Below are positions 1,368 to 42,648 of a DNA stretch of 64,000 bases, piece by piece. This DNA comes from an uncultured Candidatus Saccharibacteria bacterium (GTDB lineage: Bacteria > Patescibacteriota > Doudnabacteria > UBA920): assembly GCA_964483665.1 (NCBI GenBank), contig CAZACP010000003.1, positions 29,692-93,691 on the forward strand, in the 5' to 3' direction. A program made the position numbers and the translations under genes. The notes beneath the pieces are model-generated. The model did not search any database. It was not told where the DNA came from and saw nothing but the letters and a program-made list of their open reading frames with translations. Every line of letters starts with the position of its first letter. Positions within the stretch are counted from its first letter, which is position 1.

Positions 1368-2804
1368 TTAATCGCTATTCCAACTAATTGTTTGATAACC
1401 TTCGGCCGAGAGAGGAAAAGAAGGTGGCGGGCCAAAAAGCAAATTGCCGTCATAAGTTGTGTTGGTGTTGCAATAACCAGAAGTACAATTACCACTTCCG
1501 TTTACCCAGCTCCACGTCCAAACCCCAAAGCTTGAGACCGCTCCAAAAATTGTAATCTGAGTTTTTAGGTTGCCTGAAAAATCATACCTCTGTATACTAC
1601 CATTTTGCGCTATCATTGCCGCGTTAATTTCTAAATTATCTGGCGCGAAATAACTTACCAAAACGTCTTTTTGTCCTATTAACCCCAACACATGGTTTCC
1701 GTTTTTGGCGGTATAAACAATATTATTTGGAATAACAATACTAGGCGCGCTTGCTGCATTGTATGGTAATTTTGCAGCTGCAACCAAAACCTTTCCGTTT
1801 ACAATACCTTCAACCCAAGTCTTGTCCTCAATGTAGATCAAACCATTTGTGGGCATTTGGTAATTCTGGGTTCCGGCTAAGCTTGGATTACCATCTAATT
1901 TTGTTCGTGCCCCTCCGCCTGTTCCATAATCTATATCTTCATTGTGCGCTTGCCCATTTACATCATACCCTGTTGCGTGACTTCTTAAAGAATTTACTCT
2001 ATATATTGAAATTGTTGAGTCATTGTTAAATACCAAAGAATATCCTTGGGCACTTGAGGGTGGCAAATAAATTCCTGCAGACTGTGCCCCGCTTTTTATT
2101 GCAGCTAAATCAGAAGTTATTGAAGAAAAATCCACATTAGGAACCGGGAAATTCCAAAAGGCTCTAGTCGAAATAGGCGCCAAACCCCAAATACCTGGTT
2201 TACTTTGCGCCGGGCTGCACCCATGGTAAGTTTGGCAAGTATAGGTTGTTTTTGAAGAAGTTATTAATGCATTACCAGTACCATCAAAATGAATACCGCC
2301 ATTCGCGTGCATTTCCCCATTAATACTTTCAGTATCGCCTACCCATACATCCGTATTCGTTAAAAAGGCGTATTTAGCCAAAGAAGGTACCCCATAGCGC
2401 ACGGTAATTGTTCTTTTTGTATTTGGATTTTGTAAAGTGTAACCTGTAGATTTTATAGTTACAATTGTAGAGCCAACACTTGGAGGTGTTATTTGCAGGC
2501 TATATTCTCCTATTTTTTTATTGGTGTCTTTGTCTATAAAATCGTGGATATAAGGTCCCGGGCTGGTTGAAGTAGCATTGCCGTCGTAATAATCTGTCGC
2601 GAAATGCGCTAATCTCCACTGATAATAATTTGCTCCTGCTTCCGCTATCTGAAAGGCTTGCTCGCGGGCTACAGTATTTTTAACTAGTCTTACTTGAACC
2701 GATGCGTAAGACAAAACCGCCAGCATAACCATAGAAAAAATAAAGATTACAATAACAGTGTAAATTAATGTACTTCCGGAGTTAAATTGATCACGATTGA
2801 CCAT
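1368..2804 (-). CDS. Type IV pilus minor pilin / PilX-like assembly protein (N-terminal TM helix plus AFQIAEAGANYY PilX_N-like motif), large secreted C-terminal domain
   Basis: N-terminus MVNRDQFNSGSTLIYTVIVIFIFSMVMLAVLSYASVQVRLVKNTVAREQAFQIAEAGANYY resembles the PilX N-terminal domain; it is first of three co-oriented pilin-like genes. Confidence 0.6.
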   Translation of the reverse strand: MVNRDQFNSGSTLIYTVIVIFIFSMVMLAVLSYASVQVRLVKNTVAREQAFQIAEAGANYYQWRLAHFATDYYDGNATSTSPGPYIHDFIDKDTNKKIGEYSLQITPPSVGSTIVTIKSTGYTLQNPNTKRTITVRYGVPSLAKYAFLTNTDVWVGDTESINGEMHANGGIHFDGTGNALITSSKTTYTCQTYHGCSPAQSKPGIWGLAPISTRAFWNFPVPNVDFSSITSDLAAIKSGAQSAGIYLPPSSAQGYSLVFNNDSTISIYRVNSLRSHATGYDVNGQAHNEDIDYGTGGGARTKLDGNPSLAGTQNYQMPTNGLIYIEDKTWVEGIVNGKVLVAAAKLPYNAASAPSIVIPNNIVYTAKNGNHVLGLIGQKDVLVSYFAPDNLEINAAMIAQNGSIQRYDFSGNLKTQITIFGAVSSFGVWTWSWVNGSGNCTSGYCNTNTTYDGNLLFGPPPSFPLSAEGYQTISWNSD

Positions 2805-16446: not shown

Positions 16447-19400
16447 TTACGGAGCTGTTTCTATTATAGAAGGCACGTTGCTAACATTAAACACTATTAA
16501 GGGTGTTGACGCCAGGGACTTTAAATTTGCTCCACTAACAGCGGATGTGTAGTTAATTTCAACGCTGTCTTTAAACCGACTAGAACTTTGAGTAGAAGTT
16601 GTATATATTTCCGCGTTGTAAGTTATAGAAGTGATTCCACCCTGAGCAATATTGTTAACTTTAATGTACAATGTCTGGTTTGGCGCTGTGCCACAAGCAA
16701 CAAAATGGTTGGCAGCTAGTGTAGTATAGTTAGTCCCGCTACAGTAAGAGCCGGCGGCGGTTTCTTCCACTAAGGAAGTGGCGCCTATTTTCATATTCCA
16801 ACCCGCAGTTGGTTTCCTTAAGTTAAGCAGCGTATCGGTAATTAACACATTACTGGCAGTTTCGCCGCCTGATAACACTTGGTTGGGCAAATTCACTGAG
16901 AATGTGACAATATCTAATTTGTTGTAAACAACATTGCCGGGAGTTTCATTATTCGAGTAAGCATTAGGTAAATATCCGGAAGGGGCTGTGCCATTAACTT
17001 TTGTAATATCTTTATTGCCATTTATGTCAGCATTACAGGAAGTTGCGCCAAGCGGACTACTTGTTATGTTTAATGGAGCAGATTCAAGCGAGCCTTTGTA
17101 AGAAACTACCCAGTAGTAATTGTTGCTAGAAGCGGCCGTGGTGTCTGTGTAAGTAGAAGCTGTGGTTCCATTGGTTAAATTGCCGCTTATGTTTGTTGCC
17201 GAGGCAAAATTATTGGAACTATTTCTGTACACCCTGTAACCGTCCACGCTCGAACCTACAGGAGTCCAAGTAATAACTATTTGGTTACAAGCAGAACCCC
17301 CTCCGCCTCCGCCACCGGTTGGCGACTGCGGCCTTACATTAACAGTTACGCTTTCTGTATCAGATCCGAACGCATTAGTACATTGCAAGGTAAAGGTGGC
17401 TGCAGAGGTTAAGTTTGAAGAAGCAACTGTACCGGAGCCATTATTGCTTCCGCCTGTGCCGGGGTCAAAGAATATGCCGCTTATAACCAAGTTGGCGGGA
17501 GCGTTGTTATTGGTGAACCTAAAAATTACATGCCCCGAAACATTCCAAACTCCATAAACTCCGTTGGTAAATGAACTGTAGGTTCTGGTATCTAAGACCG
17601 CGAGAGTATTTGCGTCAAGAACATTAACCGTCTGGTTTCTGCCGCCCTGGTAGGTATCCCAGTCAAGCATATAAATAGCAACTTTATGGCTATTGCCGTC
17701 TGTAATATTGATATTTAAATCCATGGTTGTAGCCGAATACCAAGTAGCTGCCGCGCGGGTACTGACCGAAGAACTTTCATAAGGAGCTCTGATGTCCGAG
17801 GTTGGGTCAGCCCAGGAATAAAAACTGTTACCGCTTGGAGTTACGGTCACATAGGACGGGTAGCTTTGCGTTCCGCCTAAAACATTATATCCATCTGCGC
17901 CATAAACTGTTTTCCAATTACCGCTGGTTGTAGTATCGCTGGAAATATAGGTTGCCGAATTACCCGAACCTCCTCCCACCACTGACCAAGGTCCGGCGGT
18001 GGAATTACAGGTAATTGGCTGAGTTCCGGTTGTAGACCAGGTTAAACTTGTCGGAGTATTGTAGTCAACCGGATTTGGGCTGGCGTTTAAAGTTATGGAG
18101 GGAGCTACGCCCGCGGTATTAACTATTAAAAGCGGGCTGGTTGAATGGCTTAAGCTGCCGCTTGCCTGGTCTGTTGCAGTAACGCTCAAGTTAAAGCTGC
18201 CTGTGCTGGCTGTTGCCTGGGAAGTAACAACTAAAGTGGTAGAAATGCTGCCTCCGTTCGGCACAACCGGATTTGTGGGAGAAAAGGTACAAGAAGCATT
18301 GTTAGGACAACTTCCAACGCTGGCAAAATTTACCGCTCCACTAAACCCGTTAAGCGAGGTTAAAGTTATTGTAAAAGAGGTAGACTGTCCCTGGGTAATA
18401 GTCTGACTGGCCGGAGAATGGCTAATGCTAAAGTCAGGCGCTGGCGTTACTGTAACAGTCGTTGTGTCAGAGCCAGACCCGCCCGGACCACTGCAGTTAA
18501 TAGTATAAGTTGTGTTAGCCGAAAGCGCGCCGGTAGACTGGCCGACTAAGTTGGAAGTGCCGGTGTAATTCCCCGGAGTTACTGTACAGCTGGTGGCGTT
18601 AGTAGAAGTCCAGGTTAAACTGGCGCTGCCGCCGCTTACAATAGTACAGTTATCTGCGACATTACACTTTATGTCCACCACCGGAGCTACCGGGGCTGCC
18701 TGGCTGGCGCTGCAGTTTACGCTATTTGAACCGCCGTTTTCACCGTTACAAACCCAAGTTACACTGCTGCCTGCGGAAGGAAAAGCTGTATTACTAGAAT
18801 TTCCTGCCGAACACTGAACATCTGGCGCATAACCACTTGTGCCGTTTGGATAGGTCTTGCCGCTAGCATTTCCACAAACACCGTTAACCGGAGTTAAACA
18901 GTCAGCGTTACCGTTGGCTAAATTACAAGAAGTTCCGCTGCACGAAGCAGTTGTGTTGGCAACACAAGAGTTGGCTACACAATGCCCGCCCGAAGCCGTA
19001 CCTGTTTGACAACTTCCCGCGTTGTTACAAAGACTGGTTCCGGCTGTGGTACAAACATTACTGTCATCACAAACAGAATTAAAGCTTGAAGCATAGCTGC
19101 ATGCCCCCCAGGCTGTACCTGTACCGTTACAAGTTCTGCTACCGGTACAGGTAGAACCATCAACCGAAGCGCAAGGCTGTGTATCGTTAGGCGTACACAC
19201 CCCACCGTTAACGGTTACAGTTGCTACATCCCTACTGTCAGCACAATAATACTGAGGCGCGTTATTGCTATTTTGGCAAGTTGCTGTAAAGGTTCCAGCC
19301 GAACTTTGGCTGCAGGTAAACCTATAACGAGTACCGTTAACATTGGCCGGATATTCAGAATTAATCCAAGCACACCCGGAAGGCGGCGAAATAGAGCTTG

Positions 19401-21117
19401 AGTTAACCCCAAAATCACAAAAGGCGTAGTAAGTTGAACCAACGGTTGTAGTTAACGAATTAGTCGGCGGACCCGAAGGACTGCTGGAAACCCCGCTGTT
19501 AGCAGAACTATAGGTTACCGGATTACAACTTAAAGTTGAACATTGTAATTTTGCTAAATTTAAAACTTGAGTACCGCTGCCGTTATTACAAACTATTGCG
19601 GCCCTATTCCAGTAGGTTTGCCCAGGCTGTAAGTTGGTTGTGGTAAAACTAAGATCGTGATAACTGCTACTAAGGCCTATGTCCTTACAGTTTGTTGGGT
19701 CATAAGAAGCATCGCCATTAACAGCACAAAGTCCGGTGTCTACATTAGTTTCCAAAGGATGGGCTCTAAAAACTTGCCTATTTACCGAAGCAGCTCCTGT
19801 CCCGCTCCAGTCCTCCCAATTTATTCTGTAACTGGTAGCGCTAAGTTGGGTACAGGTTCCGGAGCTTGGATTAGTAGTCAAAAGACTAGAACACGGCGGG
19901 TTTTGAACAACCAAATCAACCGAAGCCGTGTCTGTACAAGTGCCACCACAGGTTGGACTGGTAAACCAACTACCACTTCTATATCCATCCGGTGACTTTG
20001 CGTTCATTGAAATTGGGTAAGTATTCGGGACAGTTCCTCCACTAGTCCTAACCAATAAAGTCAAACTTTCAGGCAAATACATACTAAAATTTATGGTTCC
20101 TGTTCTCCAATCTGTCGTTGAATAACTAGAATATGCAGCGCCCAAACCTCCCCCTGTATTTGCATCTCCAACACCGTCCCAGTTTCCGTCATCATCAGGG
20201 TCATTAAAGCGCATTGGCGCGTATAAACCGGAAGTTCCCGCGCCTGCATCTATCCTACATTCAAGGCCGGCAGGGCAGTTAAAGGTAAAATTAAGCGGGG
20301 TTGGTACGCCGCCAACAGACACACTCACAGCATAACTGACTGACCCACCCGGACTTACCGACTGACTGTTTGGCAACGCACTTATATCTATTTGAGTTTC
20401 ACATTCGGCATTGGAACTGCAGGTACCTACAACCGGACAAGTTTCTGCGCTTGTCCCATTAAACCCCGTGTTATTTAAAGTAACCGACTGACATGAACCA
20501 TAACGACAAACGTTCGCGCTAGTTGGACAGTAAATGGAATTACCGCAAGCAGGTGTAGTTACCCTTTGGTAGTCTAAGTGAGAAGATATAACAAAATTAC
20601 CGCTCGCCGGGAGTCCAGGAATTGAAGTGCCGCAAGTGGTTACTCCTGAATTAGTTGAACAACTGCCTGCAGGAACTGTGACTGTGCCTAATGGAGTTCC
20701 GGTATACCTGTCTGTAGCCACAAAAGTAACAGAGCTTAAATTTTCACCGGTATTAAATCCGGCCGGCACGCTAACACCTACCTGCTGAACACTCGAAACT
20801 GGCATACTTTGGCTTACTGTTGTCTGTCCGTTAACAGCAACAGGCGAAGCTATTACCCCGGAACCAGACAACCCGGCTGTAACACTATTGTATGTACTTG
20901 CATTAAAACCGGGAGGTAAAGTATTTGTGCTTGAATACTCACCACCACACAAACTCCCGCCAAGTTCAACCGAACCGATTTGGGAATATAAGGTAACCGA
21001 AGCAGAAACACTTCTGTTTAAACTAAAAAATACCGCGAACAAGGCTATAAAAAAAGTAAAAAAATATTTAATATAATTATTTGAATTAAAAAGTAATTTA
21101 AAATTTTTGTTTCTCAT
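16447..21117 (-). CDS. Giant secreted Cys/Ser/Thr/Gly-rich surface protein (1556 aa) with a fibronectin-III-like domain; putative adhesin
   Basis: Signal anchor FFTFFIALFAVFFSL; FN3-like segment CNQIVITWTPVGSSVDGYRVYRNSSNNF...YYWVVSYKG; multiple Cys-rich blocks (CSGTSCNLANGNADCLTPVNGVCGN). Confidence 0.7.
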   Translation of the reverse strand: MRNKNFKLLFNSNNYIKYFFTFFIALFAVFFSLNRSVSASVTLYSQIGSVELGGSLCGGEYSSTNTLPPGFNASTYNSVTAGLSGSGVIASPVAVNGQTTVSQSMPVSSVQQVGVSVPAGFNTGENLSSVTFVATDRYTGTPLGTVTVPAGSCSTNSGVTTCGTSIPGLPASGNFVISSHLDYQRVTTPACGNSIYCPTSANVCRYGSCQSVTLNNTGFNGTSAETCPVVGTCSSNAECETQIDISALPNSQSVSPGGSVSYAVSVSVGGVPTPLNFTFNCPAGLECRIDAGAGTSGLYAPMRFNDPDDDGNWDGVGDANTGGGLGAAYSSYSTTDWRTGTINFSMYLPESLTLLVRTSGGTVPNTYPISMNAKSPDGYRSGSWFTSPTCGGTCTDTASVDLVVQNPPCSSLLTTNPSSGTCTQLSATSYRINWEDWSGTGAASVNRQVFRAHPLETNVDTGLCAVNGDASYDPTNCKDIGLSSSYHDLSFTTTNLQPGQTYWNRAAIVCNNGSGTQVLNLAKLQCSTLSCNPVTYSSANSGVSSSPSGPPTNSLTTTVGSTYYAFCDFGVNSSSISPPSGCAWINSEYPANVNGTRYRFTCSQSSAGTFTATCQNSNNAPQYYCADSRDVATVTVNGGVCTPNDTQPCASVDGSTCTGSRTCNGTGTAWGACSYASSFNSVCDDSNVCTTAGTSLCNNAGSCQTGTASGGHCVANSCVANTTASCSGTSCNLANGNADCLTPVNGVCGNASGKTYPNGTSGYAPDVQCSAGNSSNTAFPSAGSSVTWVCNGENGGSNSVNCSASQAAPVAPVVDIKCNVADNCTIVSGGSASLTWTSTNATSCTVTPGNYTGTSNLVGQSTGALSANTTYTINCSGPGGSGSDTTTVTVTPAPDFSISHSPASQTITQGQSTSFTITLTSLNGFSGAVNFASVGSCPNNASCTFSPTNPVVPNGGSISTTLVVTSQATASTGSFNLSVTATDQASGSLSHSTSPLLIVNTAGVAPSITLNASPNPVDYNTPTSLTWSTTGTQPITCNSTAGPWSVVGGGSGNSATYISSDTTTSGNWKTVYGADGYNVLGGTQSYPSYVTVTPSGNSFYSWADPTSDIRAPYESSSVSTRAAATWYSATTMDLNINITDGNSHKVAIYMLDWDTYQGGRNQTVNVLDANTLAVLDTRTYSSFTNGVYGVWNVSGHVIFRFTNNNAPANLVISGIFFDPGTGGSNNGSGTVASSNLTSAATFTLQCTNAFGSDTESVTVNVRPQSPTGGGGGGGSACNQIVITWTPVGSSVDGYRVYRNSSNNFASATNISGNLTNGTTASTYTDTTAASSNNYYWVVSYKGSLESAPLNITSSPLGATSCNADINGNKDITKVNGTAPSGYLPNAYSNNETPGNVVYNKLDIVTFSVNLPNQVLSGGETASNVLITDTLLNLRKPTAGWNMKIGATSLVEETAAGSYCSGTNYTTLAANHFVACGTAPNQTLYIKVNNIAQGGITSITYNAEIYTTSTQSSSRFKDSVEINYTSAVSGANLKSLASTPLIVFNVSNVPSIIETAP

Positions 21118-41842: not shown

Positions 41843-41926
41843 TTGGTTTCGAACATTACCATTTTTCCACTCTGCCCAAAATTAAAATCACCAACAAACA
41901 TTGGTGATTTTAATTGGCTCGGGAGC
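41843..41926. repeat. Direct repeat copy B (includes the genuine tRNA 3' end)
   Basis: See copy A. Confidence 0.65.
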
Positions 41927-41955
41927 TGGGATTCGAACCCAGGACCCATCGGTTA

Positions 41956-42508
41956 CACTTTACCCTAATATTTCTATTAGGCGTGGACTATATCATTCCG
42001 CCAGAGGCGGACGAGGGGCTTCCCAATCCCACATAGTGGGATAAGTACTCTCTTTCGAGATAGTCTCTGAACCTTCAATGACTTTTCGTCAAAGCTTGGC
42101 TGCTGATTGCCATATCCTTATAAGGATTTAGGGTTCCAGCAATTCACCTCGTTTTTCACTTCCCAATTGCTTGAGAAGGCTGCAATAGACCGGCATGAAT
42201 TTCCTTATGACAGTTGGAACAAATAAGTACGCACTTATTTAGTTCTGCTAAAGTTTTTTGCCAGGACCTTGTTAGGCCATTGGCACCAAGTCCAAAACCT
42301 TTGGTTTTGGGGTCAAGATGATGAAACTCTAGGGCACCGGCGCAACGGTTATATCCACAAAATTGGCATTTGCCACCTTTGTGGGCTATTGCCATTTCTT
42401 TAATCTTTTTGCGCCGTTTGTCTACTGCCTTTTTAAGGTATTCTGCGCGGTCGGAATATTTCCTTTTATCAGGCATAAATTTATGTTTACTGATAAAGGG
42501 TAGTGTTC
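41956..42508 (-). mobile_element. Group I intron (conserved P, Q, R, S elements) with embedded HNH homing-endonuclease ORF
   Basis: In RNA sense: P GUGAAUUGCUGGAACCC, Q GGCAAUCAGCAGCC, R GGUUCAGAGACUAUC, S AUGAUAUAGUCCACG, P9 hairpin CCUAAUAGAAAUAUUAGG, terminal G. Confidence 0.75.
42156..42476 (-). CDS. HNH endonuclease (intron-encoded)
   Basis: CQFCGYNRCAGALEFHHLDPKTKGF...NGLTRSWQKTLAELNKCVLICSNCHKEIHAG: the HNH His-Me finger with two CxxC pairs. Confidence 0.85.
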   Translation of the reverse strand: MPDKRKYSDRAEYLKKAVDKRRKKIKEMAIAHKGGKCQFCGYNRCAGALEFHHLDPKTKGFGLGANGLTRSWQKTLAELNKCVLICSNCHKEIHAGLLQPSQAIGK

Positions 42509-42648
42509 ACAGCCGATTGCTCTACCGCTGAGCTACTCCCGAACGTTTGTTGAATATATTCAACTTACGATATTTTAACATCAAATTTAAATTTCATCAA
42601 CCCCAAACAAATTAGCTGGATGCTAGTATTTTTTGTTATAATCTAACT

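Follow-up and report, generated by a model that had tools for sequence, protein, structure and literature searches.

The 64,000-nt stretch of DNA analysed here (the window) exhibits on its minus strand a tRNA gene interrupted by a group I intron, within which a small HNH open reading frame (ORF) is embedded. The two exons (42509-42542 and 41915-41955) and the 553-nt gap between them lie exactly where the original prediction, made from the letters of the sequence, had placed them; all coordinates of the split gene refer to the minus strand of the window (Table 1). When joined in silico, the exons form a 75-nt cloverleaf identified by ARAGORN as a tRNA-Asn(gtt), with the ligation region reading GGCUGUUAACCG, in agreement with the earlier view that the two halves make up one tRNA. 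The tRNA body, as read from the sequence, carries a U1-A72 pair and the discriminator base G73. Our reading, held with high confidence, is that this gene is a tRNA-Asn(GUU) which harbors, between nucleotides 35 and 36, a self-splicing group I intron of the IA type with an HNH homing-endonuclease gene in its P1 loop, and that its host belongs to the Patescibacteria, or candidate phyla radiation (CPR). The observation of the intron within the tRNA is confirmed: it is real, located to the base and correctly interpreted.

ARAGORN in its default mode reports no tRNA gene in the whole window. With introns allowed, it reports a split tRNA at exactly 41915-42542, which it names Thr; according to these ARAGORN runs, this split tRNA-Asn is the sole believable tRNA gene of the window. 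The intron-aware mode also proposes a "tRNA-Leu(cag)" with a 355-nt intron (20428-20880, minus strand). This call is almost certainly a false positive, since it falls inside a 1556-aa ORF (16447-21117) and has no Rfam match.

Table 1. Features of the split tRNA-Asn gene and of loci with free-standing HNH genes (positions are those of the window unless another locus is named)
Feature	Position	Strand	Sequence, basis or remark
tRNA-Asn(GUU) exon 1	42509-42542 (34 nt)	minus	Acceptor 5' strand, D arm, anticodon stem 5' strand, loop C32-U35
Exon 1 sequence	42542-42509	minus	UCGGGAGUAGCUCAGCGGUAGAGCAAUCGGCUGU; ends CUGU; U35 is the 5' splice site
Group I intron, IA type	41956-42508 (553 nt)	minus	Starts GAACAC, ends AAAGUG; omegaG is 41956
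Leader hairpin	42462-42500	minus	Intron nt ~10-19 (CCUUUAUCAG) pair with ORF codons 2-5; RNAfold
HNH endonuclease ORF	42156-42476 (106 aa + stop)	minus	Stop UGA 42156-42158; motifs CQFC...HH...CSNCHKEIH
P1 3' strand (internal guide)	42180-42185	minus	UU-GCAG; within ORF codons Leu-Gln
P2 hairpin	42159-42178	minus	CUUCUCAA-GCAA-UUGGGAAG, GNRA loop; specified by the final codons of the ORF (PSQAIGK)
P3 5' strand and P element/P4 5' strand	42136-42151	minus	CGAGG and GUGAAUUGCUGG; covariation
P element	42136-42147	minus	Within CGAGGUGAAUUGCUGG
Q element/P4 3' strand and P6 5' strand	42098-42108	minus	AAUCAGCAGCC; covariation
R element/P7 5' strand	42061-42072	minus	GUUCAGAGACUA; invariant in 54 sequences
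P7.1	42049-42060	minus	UCUC-GAAA-GAGA; compensatory changes
P7.2	42026-42042	minus	AUCCCAC-UAU-GUGGGAU; compensatory changes
P3 3' strand	42012-42016	minus	CCUCG; covariation
P8 hairpin	41997-42011	minus	Covariation
S element/P7 3' strand	41985-41996	minus	AUGAUAUAGUCC
P9.0	41983-41982 with 41958-41957	minus	A-C with G-U, just before omegaG
P9 hairpin	41964-41981	minus	
tRNA-Asn exon 2	41955-41915 (41 nt)	minus	UAACCGAUGGGUCCUGGGUUCGAAUCCCAGCUCCCGAGCCA; UAA-CCGAU...G-CCA
Parts of exon 2			U36 A37 A38, anticodon stem 3' strand, variable loop, T arm, acceptor 3' strand, G73, encoded CCA
Promoter-like site	42572-42600	minus	TTGATG-17-TAAAAT (TG-extended); ~30 nt upstream of the tRNA 5' end
Terminator-like hairpin	41884-41911	minus	AAAAUCACCAA-UGUUUG-UUGGUGAUUUU; directly after the CCA end; read from the sequence
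L031	HNH 1224-1520; tRNA-Asn from ~1526		
L044	HNH 1501-1812; tRNA-Asn 1838-2155		
L073	HNH 1501-1815; tRNA-Asn 1856-2158		
Cultured phage CR3 (L188)	NC_017974.1 145846-146292		
Cultured phage Bastille (L189)	NC_018856.1 5857-6685		

The Rfam group I intron model RF00028 matches the minus strand over its full length (41964-42208) with 64.9 bits (gathering score 50, E = 3.4e-14), and it is the only Rfam family to reach its gathering score in the window. The assignment to group I thus holds on a covariance model. The core strings quoted in the original prediction, P, Q, R and S, are all present in the canonical order and are followed by the P9 hairpin. An alignment of 54 distinct introns (A2), extending from the guide sequence to exon 2, was used to evaluate the fold. 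RNAalifold, unaided, recovers P2, P3, P4/P5, P6/P6a, P7.2, P8, P9 and the pairing of the last intron bases, with compensatory changes in 38 of 46 pairs. P7, which is pseudoknotted, and P7.1 were added by hand, for a total of 52 pairs. The resulting structure is paired in 94.7% of the cells, as compared with 33-45% when the partners are slid by 1-3 columns, and 40 of its 52 pairs exhibit changes on both sides. Its covariation score is 0.619, against 0.174 for shuffled alignments, and none of 500 shuffles reaches the observed value. The four central pairs of P2 are 99.5% paired, with compensatory changes in all four, and both pairs of P9.0 are 100% paired (AU 48/GC 6 and CG 34/UA 18). P7 is invariant in the 54 sequences, and covariation is therefore uninformative either way for this helix. 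The window matches all 48 invariant core positions of the alignment. P7.1 and P7.2, the hallmark of subgroup IA, are found between P7 and the P3 3' strand, where the Rfam alignment shows a 40-nt insertion; the intron is of the IA type by this feature, in agreement with the published classification. Five contigs encoding an identical HNH protein (L001-L005) exhibit, relative to the window, a tandem duplication of 15 nt (CCCUAAAUCCUUAUA twice), located in the P5 loop (window 42110-42133); their introns are 568 nt long instead of 553 nt, a strain-level length variation in a peripheral loop.

The pairing at the 5' splice site is short. In the window, GCAG of the guide (42183-42180) pairs with exon nucleotides C32-U35, with U35 (42509) opposite G 42183, and the adjoining UU pairs with intron G+1 and A+2. 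CUGU/GCAG is found without variation in the 72 introns where the guide was located, the U.G wobble and the terminal G being present in all 72, and the first intron base covaries with the base 5' of GCAG (69 of 72 paired: G:C 39, G:U 12, A:U 18). An extension of P1 into the anticodon stem (GGCUGU/GCAGCC in the window) was considered and discarded as coincidental in the window. Guide bases 5 and 6 pair with tRNA positions 31 and 30 in 47 and 53 of the 72 introns, respectively, against 47.0 and 57.2 expected, and there is no covariation. P1 thus consists of four exonic pairs plus one or two intronic ones and leaves the anticodon stem untouched. Between the 5' part of the guide and UAACCG, inspection of the window by eye reveals only a gapped 4-bp match (ACCG/CGGU), and no P10 is claimed.

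The position of the HNH ORF within the ribozyme becomes clear from its relatives. A search of 185,579 species-representative genomes identified at least 549 genome loci encoding a relative of the window HNH protein, 80 of which, together with 10 contigs encoding the identical protein, constitute our comparison set. The ORF lies inside a tRNA-Asn intron in 71 of the 80 genome loci, with medians of 554 nt for the intron, 32 nt for the distance from the splice site to the ORF start and 108 aa for the ORF. Protein-coding group I introns within genes for tRNAs had been regarded as rare; for this combination of intron and HNH gene, such numbers do not bear the statement out. In three relatives with short introns (L031, L044 and L073; 206-244 nt), GCAGC occurs 7-10 nt past the splice site, and the same P2 comes after it. 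Because these ORF-less introns have their guide so close to the splice site, the HNH ORF is an insertion in the P1 loop, which it fills in the window. The original prediction was right about the 106-aa HNH ORF but not about its place, given as between the 5' splice site and the core: the ORF lies in the loop of P1, and its sequence coincides in part with the P1 3' strand and with the whole of P2. The window codons Leu-Gln-Pro-Ser-Gln-Ala-Ile-Gly-Lys-stop (42185-42156) are also the P1 3' strand and the entire P2. The proteins accordingly share a conserved C-terminal tail ("LQPS / TQLP"), as their last codons double as these two RNA elements. At the other end of the ORF, the AUG (42474-42476) is located at the edge of the loop of the leader hairpin, and a similar hairpin is predicted in all 14 related introns inspected. 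The predicted leader hairpin may control endonuclease translation; taken with the overlap of the ORF with the P1 3' strand and P2, it would point to a coupling of translation and folding.

The name given to the tRNA by ARAGORN raises the question of its identity. The flanks CUGU/GAAC...AAAGUG/UAA permit two junctions, each with a 5' exon ending in U and an intron ending in G: splicing after U35 yields Asn(GUU), and splicing after U33 yields Thr(UGU). A third junction, yielding Thr(GGU), breaks this U/G rule and was rejected. The host as a tRNA-Thr(UGU) with an intron between nucleotides 33 and 34 (splice after 42511, intron end at G 41958) gives a valid cloverleaf and satisfies the rule for the last exon and intron bases, and tRNA-Thr(tgt) i(33,553) is the call that intron-aware ARAGORN makes for the window, as well as for roughly half of the related loci. 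However, such a junction requires an intron starting with G and ending with GUG, which occurs in a subset of the loci only; in L030, L050 and L058 (..ACG/UAA), L071 (..GCG/UAA) and others, Asn is the only possible reading. The terminal GUG, AUG or ACG is accounted for by the covarying P9.0 pairs: as the last bases before omegaG form P9.0, many copies mimic a Thr anticodon through their GUG end. The guide GCAG, by pairing with CUGU, places the wobble at U35 and not at U33. Among bacterial identity elements, U1-A72 and G73 make up the Asn pattern, whereas tRNA-Thr normally has G1-C72 and A73; the window tRNA body is Asn-like in this respect. ARAGORN finds a tRNA gene in 85 of the 90 loci of the comparison set, almost always split around the ORF, and the junction ...CUGU/intron...G/UAA is observed in 84 of 84 related loci with resolved boundaries, with U1-A72 and G73 throughout.

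Uninterrupted genes provide further evidence on the same point. A 28-nt probe spanning the proposed ligation point was searched in metagenome contigs and is found uninterrupted in 17 of them, all of which are tRNA-Asn(gtt) according to ARAGORN. Six of these uninterrupted genes (L091, L095, L096, L099, L100 and L107) exhibit an exon 2 100% identical and an exon 1 97% identical to those of the window; genes with the same exons are thus tRNA-Asn. The same two-base miscall has been described by Nakagawa et al. 2026 (PMC13011429), who sequenced the spliced product. A tRNA-Thr host is refuted to a high standard, and we give it next to no probability. The original prediction had correctly named tRNA-Asn(GUU) and overlooked the competing Thr(UGU) junction, which is excluded here. 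Its insertion point between nucleotides 35 and 36 stands, on the junctions of the 84 loci, the guide wobble at U35 and the uninterrupted genes; so do the U with which the 5' exon closes (U35) and the G at the end of the intron (omegaG, 41956).

The protein encoded in the P1 loop retains the HNH catalytic residues, the His/Asn/His of a beta-beta-alpha-metal motif, and two zinc pairs of the CxxC type (C37-x2-C40, H52-H53, C86-x-N88-C89-H90, H94). Among 34 homologs, no variation occurs at C40, C86, N88, C89, H90 and H94, and conservation reaches at least 90% at C37, H52 and H53. Phage HNH families of PHROG match the window protein down to E = 4.5e-27, and 26 of 34 close homologs match the Pfam HNH domain (PF01844) at E <= 0.01. 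The homologs share a basic N-terminal segment (RKYSDRAEYLKKAVDKRRKKIK), and the family comprises more than 450 clusters at 90% identity. The window ORF is intact, and 20 contigs from several samples, JGI 3300045394/5 and SRR23702459/60 among them, carry it with 100% identity.

The intron is absent from some relatives of the host gene. Relatives with identical exons are without it; of the intron-less loci, L097 and L103 share in addition the immediate flanks at 83-96% identity, and L100 shares diverged neighbouring genes. In another group, formed by the three relatives with short ORF-less 35/36 introns (L031, L044 and L073), a free-standing HNH gene is located just upstream of the tRNA-Asn gene (Table 1), a layout which resembles that of an endonuclease acting in trans. 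In a further bacterial metagenome-assembled genome (MAG), L065, an HNH gene (1501-1797) precedes an uninterrupted tRNA-Asn(gtt) gene (1815-1889) at a distance of 17 nt, possibly representing an intron-less, endonuclease-adjacent state outside phages. Several MAGs labelled "uncultured Gammaproteobacteria" or "Pseudomonadales" (e.g. L018, L019, L024, L025, L029, L033 and L037) carry the CPR-type tRNA-Asn intron; these labels look unreliable, as the tRNA and HNH sequences sit among those of CPR. A few matches are found in MAGs of Omnitrophota, Aerophobetes, Limisphaerales and Blastocatellia, which may reflect real spread or binning errors.

Phages carry relatives of the HNH gene as well. In 80 viral contigs from IMG/VR (L108-L187) encoding relatives at 48-63% identity, the HNH relatives are free-standing genes in tRNA arrays, and an uninterrupted tRNA-Asn(GUU) is the immediate neighbour (<=250 nt) of the HNH gene in 53 of the 80 loci. 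Asn accounts for 69 of about 506 tRNAs (~14%) in those arrays. By a simple motif count, the group I core (AGAGACTA plus GATATAGTC) is found in none of the 80 viral loci; on this count, the phage HNH genes lie outside introns of this family. The pattern extends to cultured phages: Cronobacter phage CR3 has a tRNA-Asn 17 nt upstream of its HNH gene (gp262, YP_006383277), and Bacillus phage Bastille has its own (gp259, YP_006907301) flanked by two tRNA-Asn genes. In a rough neighbour-joining tree of the HNH proteins, CPR genes that stand free are nested within the embedded ones, and most of the phage genes group with each other. This tree is crude, its automatic labels having miscalled the embedded ORFs L021, L055 and L062 as free-standing, and we use only its nearest-neighbour pattern.

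This linkage bears on the role of the protein. The HNH protein might not be, or might no longer be, a homing endonuclease, and might serve, for instance, as a maturase-like aid to folding or as a general nuclease. It is only 106 aa long; its conserved N-terminal segment (RKYSDRAEYLKKAVDKRRKKIK) is highly basic, and no domain that would read a sequence is identifiable in it. Its conservation over hundreds of genomes is not what pure selfish homing followed by decay obviously predicts, and its tRNA target is single-copy and usually already occupied. Yet the HNH catalytic and zinc-binding residues are all invariant or nearly so, and the clade adjoins tRNA-Asn even where there is no intron, in the 53 phage loci as in CR3 and Bastille. 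An association with intron-less tRNA-Asn genes cannot reflect a role in splicing, and fits a homing enzyme that targets the DNA of tRNA-Asn genes. To our knowledge, no HNH maturase has been described. A role other than homing thus appears unlikely, and a homing endonuclease is the reading that we retain.

Taken together, these features suggest the following mechanism. One 628-nt precursor would be transcribed from the split gene, and exon nucleotides C32-U35 would pair with GCAG of the guide, with U35.G at the cleavage site. The anticodon stem would stay formed and hold both exons, substituting for a strong P10. A free guanosine would attack after U35; omegaG, placed by the two-pair P9.0, would then enter the G site, and the exons would be ligated to restore the loop CUGUUAA. 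The HNH protein, translated from the precursor or from the excised intron, would nick or cut intron-less tRNA-Asn genes near the anticodon, and repair would copy the intron into them (homing). This last step has indirect support in that relatives have intron-less alleles with identical exons and in that the clade is linked to tRNA-Asn genes even where an intron is absent. Given that the ORF starts in the leader hairpin and that its last nine codons form the P1 3' strand and P2, translation and ribozyme folding on one molecule are probably mutually exclusive. From the sequences we infer that the ORF-bearing copy in the window would splice, that intron-less tRNA-Asn genes would be the DNA target of the HNH protein, and that translation and splicing would interplay in this manner.

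Several points weigh against a self-splicing intron with a homing passenger. The exonic part of P1 is only 4 bp long and no convincing P10 was found, and with a loop of about 320 nt P1 could form more slowly or less well. In vitro, Nakagawa et al. spliced ORF-less introns (the Asn one is 234 nt long, as compared with 553 nt in the window). The window protein scores 20.2 bits against PF01844, just below the cut-off of 21.4, and the HNH family profile has no match among PDB sequences at E <= 0.01. With its 106 aa, the protein lacks a separate domain recognisable as DNA-binding, so that site-specific cleavage by it is presumed. Intron-less alleles share with the window only ~40-75 nt of flank (L097 and L103) or diverged genes (L100). 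At the protein level, the short intron-less contigs show no synteny with the window, and in L100 it is limited to diverged pyrD and ABC (ATP-binding cassette) transporter genes. Because sharing is so limited, the presence/absence of the intron holds among relatives, not among strains or within a population.

Some of these points could also be taken as signs of decay. The intron might be a decaying relic, in which the ribozyme or the ORF is non-functional, the tRNA being a pseudogene or its splicing depending on host factors: the very long P1 loop combined with the short P1 could compromise self-splicing, and the 15-nt tandem duplication that distinguishes close strains in the P5 loop indicates some drift in peripheral parts. 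However, the window retains every invariant core position, its helices pair as in the family, the ORF is intact and identical on 20 contigs, and no other tRNA gene of any kind is found within the window, although a second tRNA-Asn may exist elsewhere in the genome. We regard a relic as very improbable, and favor a functional, self-splicing intron.

The surroundings of the gene are those of a bacterial chromosome (~40% G+C), with pyrD, ABC and MFS (major facilitator superfamily) transporters and pilin-like genes. The nearest named relatives of the window pyrD are from Ca. Doudnabacteria and the Patescibacteria group (63-70% identity), and the closest relatives of the intron (L011-L014) are CPR MAGs. 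A promoter scan yields one site upstream of the tRNA (Table 1), against 1.9 expected by chance, which is only consistent with a promoter and not evidence for one. The hairpin following the CCA end was not flagged in a terminator scan of the window; it is kept at 89-96% identity in the intron-less loci L097, L103 and L105. Statistically, neither the promoter-like site nor this hairpin is compelling. At least eight independent contigs (L005, L006, L007, L020, L029, L031, L039 and L051) break off at precisely the final base of the split tRNA-Asn gene, which hints at strain-variable or repeated DNA immediately downstream, and perhaps at integration at tRNA-Asn.

Introns at position 35/36 of tRNA-Asn form a published class, designated "Asn.4Ug" (Williams 2020, bioRxiv 10.1101/2020.01.27.920355). 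Nakagawa, Amikura, Omae and Suzuki (2026, mSystems; PMC13011429) cite Williams for this class and for the fact that it is sometimes misannotated as Thr. Surveying 95 complete genomes of Patescibacteria, they found 35/36 introns in 15 tRNA-Asn and 3 tRNA-Asp genes, documented the miscall of ARAGORN/tFind as Thr(UGU) 33/34, and assigned 25 of 28 introns at 35/36 to subgroup IA. They also demonstrated self-splicing in vitro, sequenced the ligated tRNA and showed that an omegaG-to-C mutation blocks the reaction. HNH (PF01844) endonucleases were encoded in four of the tRNA-Asn introns, and the authors infer limited mobility while cautioning that such genes may be under-detected (PMC13011429). The window is like this class in host gene, insertion site, phylum, IA architecture (P7.1, P7.2), the Thr miscall and the presence of an HNH gene in some copies. 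It differs from the intron spliced in vitro in that the latter lacks an ORF, whereas the window intron carries one in its P1 loop. The scale is also different, with four HNH-bearing copies among complete genomes in their study and at least 549 loci with a relative here. Nakagawa et al. 2026 do not appear to give a description of the ORF site in the ribozyme, of its overlap with the P1 3' strand and P2 or of free-standing relatives. Position 35/36 thus lies outside the classical bacterial tRNA intron sites, as the original prediction held, but the novelty which it implied does not stand, the site having been published twice. Since the class is published with experimental support for splicing, the window element is a further member of it and not a discovery; its mechanism is that of an ordinary self-splicing group I intron in which a homing endonuclease travels as a passenger.

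Two other tRNA introns offer useful comparisons. The tRNA-fMet(CAU) intron of Synechocystis PCC 6803 encodes I-Ssp6803I, for which cleavage was demonstrated (Bonocora & Shub 2001, cited in PMC3984707) and which recognises the anticodon region of the intron-less tRNA gene. Like the window element, this is a bacterial group I intron in a tRNA anticodon loop with its own homing endonuclease; unlike it, it resides in another tRNA, at site 33/34 and in another phylum, and its enzyme is of the PD-(D/E)XK and not the HNH type. In the case of the Anabaena pre-tRNA-Leu intron, it is the anticodon stem that brings the exons into alignment (Zaug, McEvoy & Cech 1993, cited in PMC3984707). This intron shares with ours self-splicing in the anticodon loop, a short exonic P1 and a stem in place of a strong P10, and differs in its subgroup (IC3), its site (34/35) and the lack of an ORF. 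An anticodon stem acting as exon holder is consistent with our data, because the guide does not covary with positions 30 and 31.

Phage group I introns with HNH endonucleases, such as I-HmuI of SPO1 and I-BasI of Bastille, reside in DNA polymerase genes. The window clade resembles phage HNH introns and free-standing HNH genes in associating a small HNH enzyme with a self-splicing intron and in having both embedded and free-standing members. However, the phage HNH systems target protein-coding genes, whereas here tRNA-Asn is in every case the linked gene, and a bacterial chromosome is the host. Collaborative or trans homing, in which an intron is mobilised in trans by a free-standing endonuclease, has been documented for T4 mobE (PMC2790892) and for F-CphI beside psbA (PMC6083498).

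What is new here is the scale of the HNH relatives, the location of the ORF in the P1 loop and over the P1 3' strand and P2, the presence/absence pattern, and the link between the HNH clade and tRNA-Asn. The last was not found in Nakagawa et al. 2026, in Williams 2020 or in targeted passages of the Hausner 2014 review. We tentatively propose, at somewhat less than even confidence, that the clade is a homing-endonuclease lineage specific for tRNA-Asn genes and that its three arrangements represent stages of one evolutionary route: (i) free-standing beside an intron-less tRNA-Asn in phage arrays (53 of 80 viral loci, CR3, Bastille); (ii) free-standing upstream of a CPR tRNA-Asn with an ORF-less 35/36 intron (L031, L044, L073); and (iii) inserted in the intron P1 loop (the window, 71 of 80 genome loci). 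As judged from the sequences compared, the observations would fit a tRNA-Asn-specific endonuclease lineage that entered an intron at its own target. These side observations on the HNH clade are the part most deserving follow-up.

The host is a bacterium with a reduced genome, in which the maturation of tRNA-Asn, essential and probably present in a single copy, would rely on a ribozyme. As tRNA finders either miss the gene (ARAGORN in default mode) or misname it Thr, the genome would seem to lack tRNA-Asn, and such apparent losses affect completeness estimates of CPR genomes, a point already in print. That the HNH-bearing form is common and not exceptional weakens the published inference of little autonomous mobility of tRNA introns in the phylum, and the steady linkage of the HNH family to tRNA-Asn in both phages and CPR amounts to a concrete target prediction. 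Bonocora and Shub reportedly made a proposal on the origin of mobile introns. If the proposed route is true, the three arrangements would provide a natural series for the idea that mobile group I introns originate when the gene of a free-standing endonuclease enters an intron located where that enzyme itself cuts; "ORF-less" tRNA-Asn introns could be set in motion in trans, and phages may act as carriers of the nuclease from one lineage to another.

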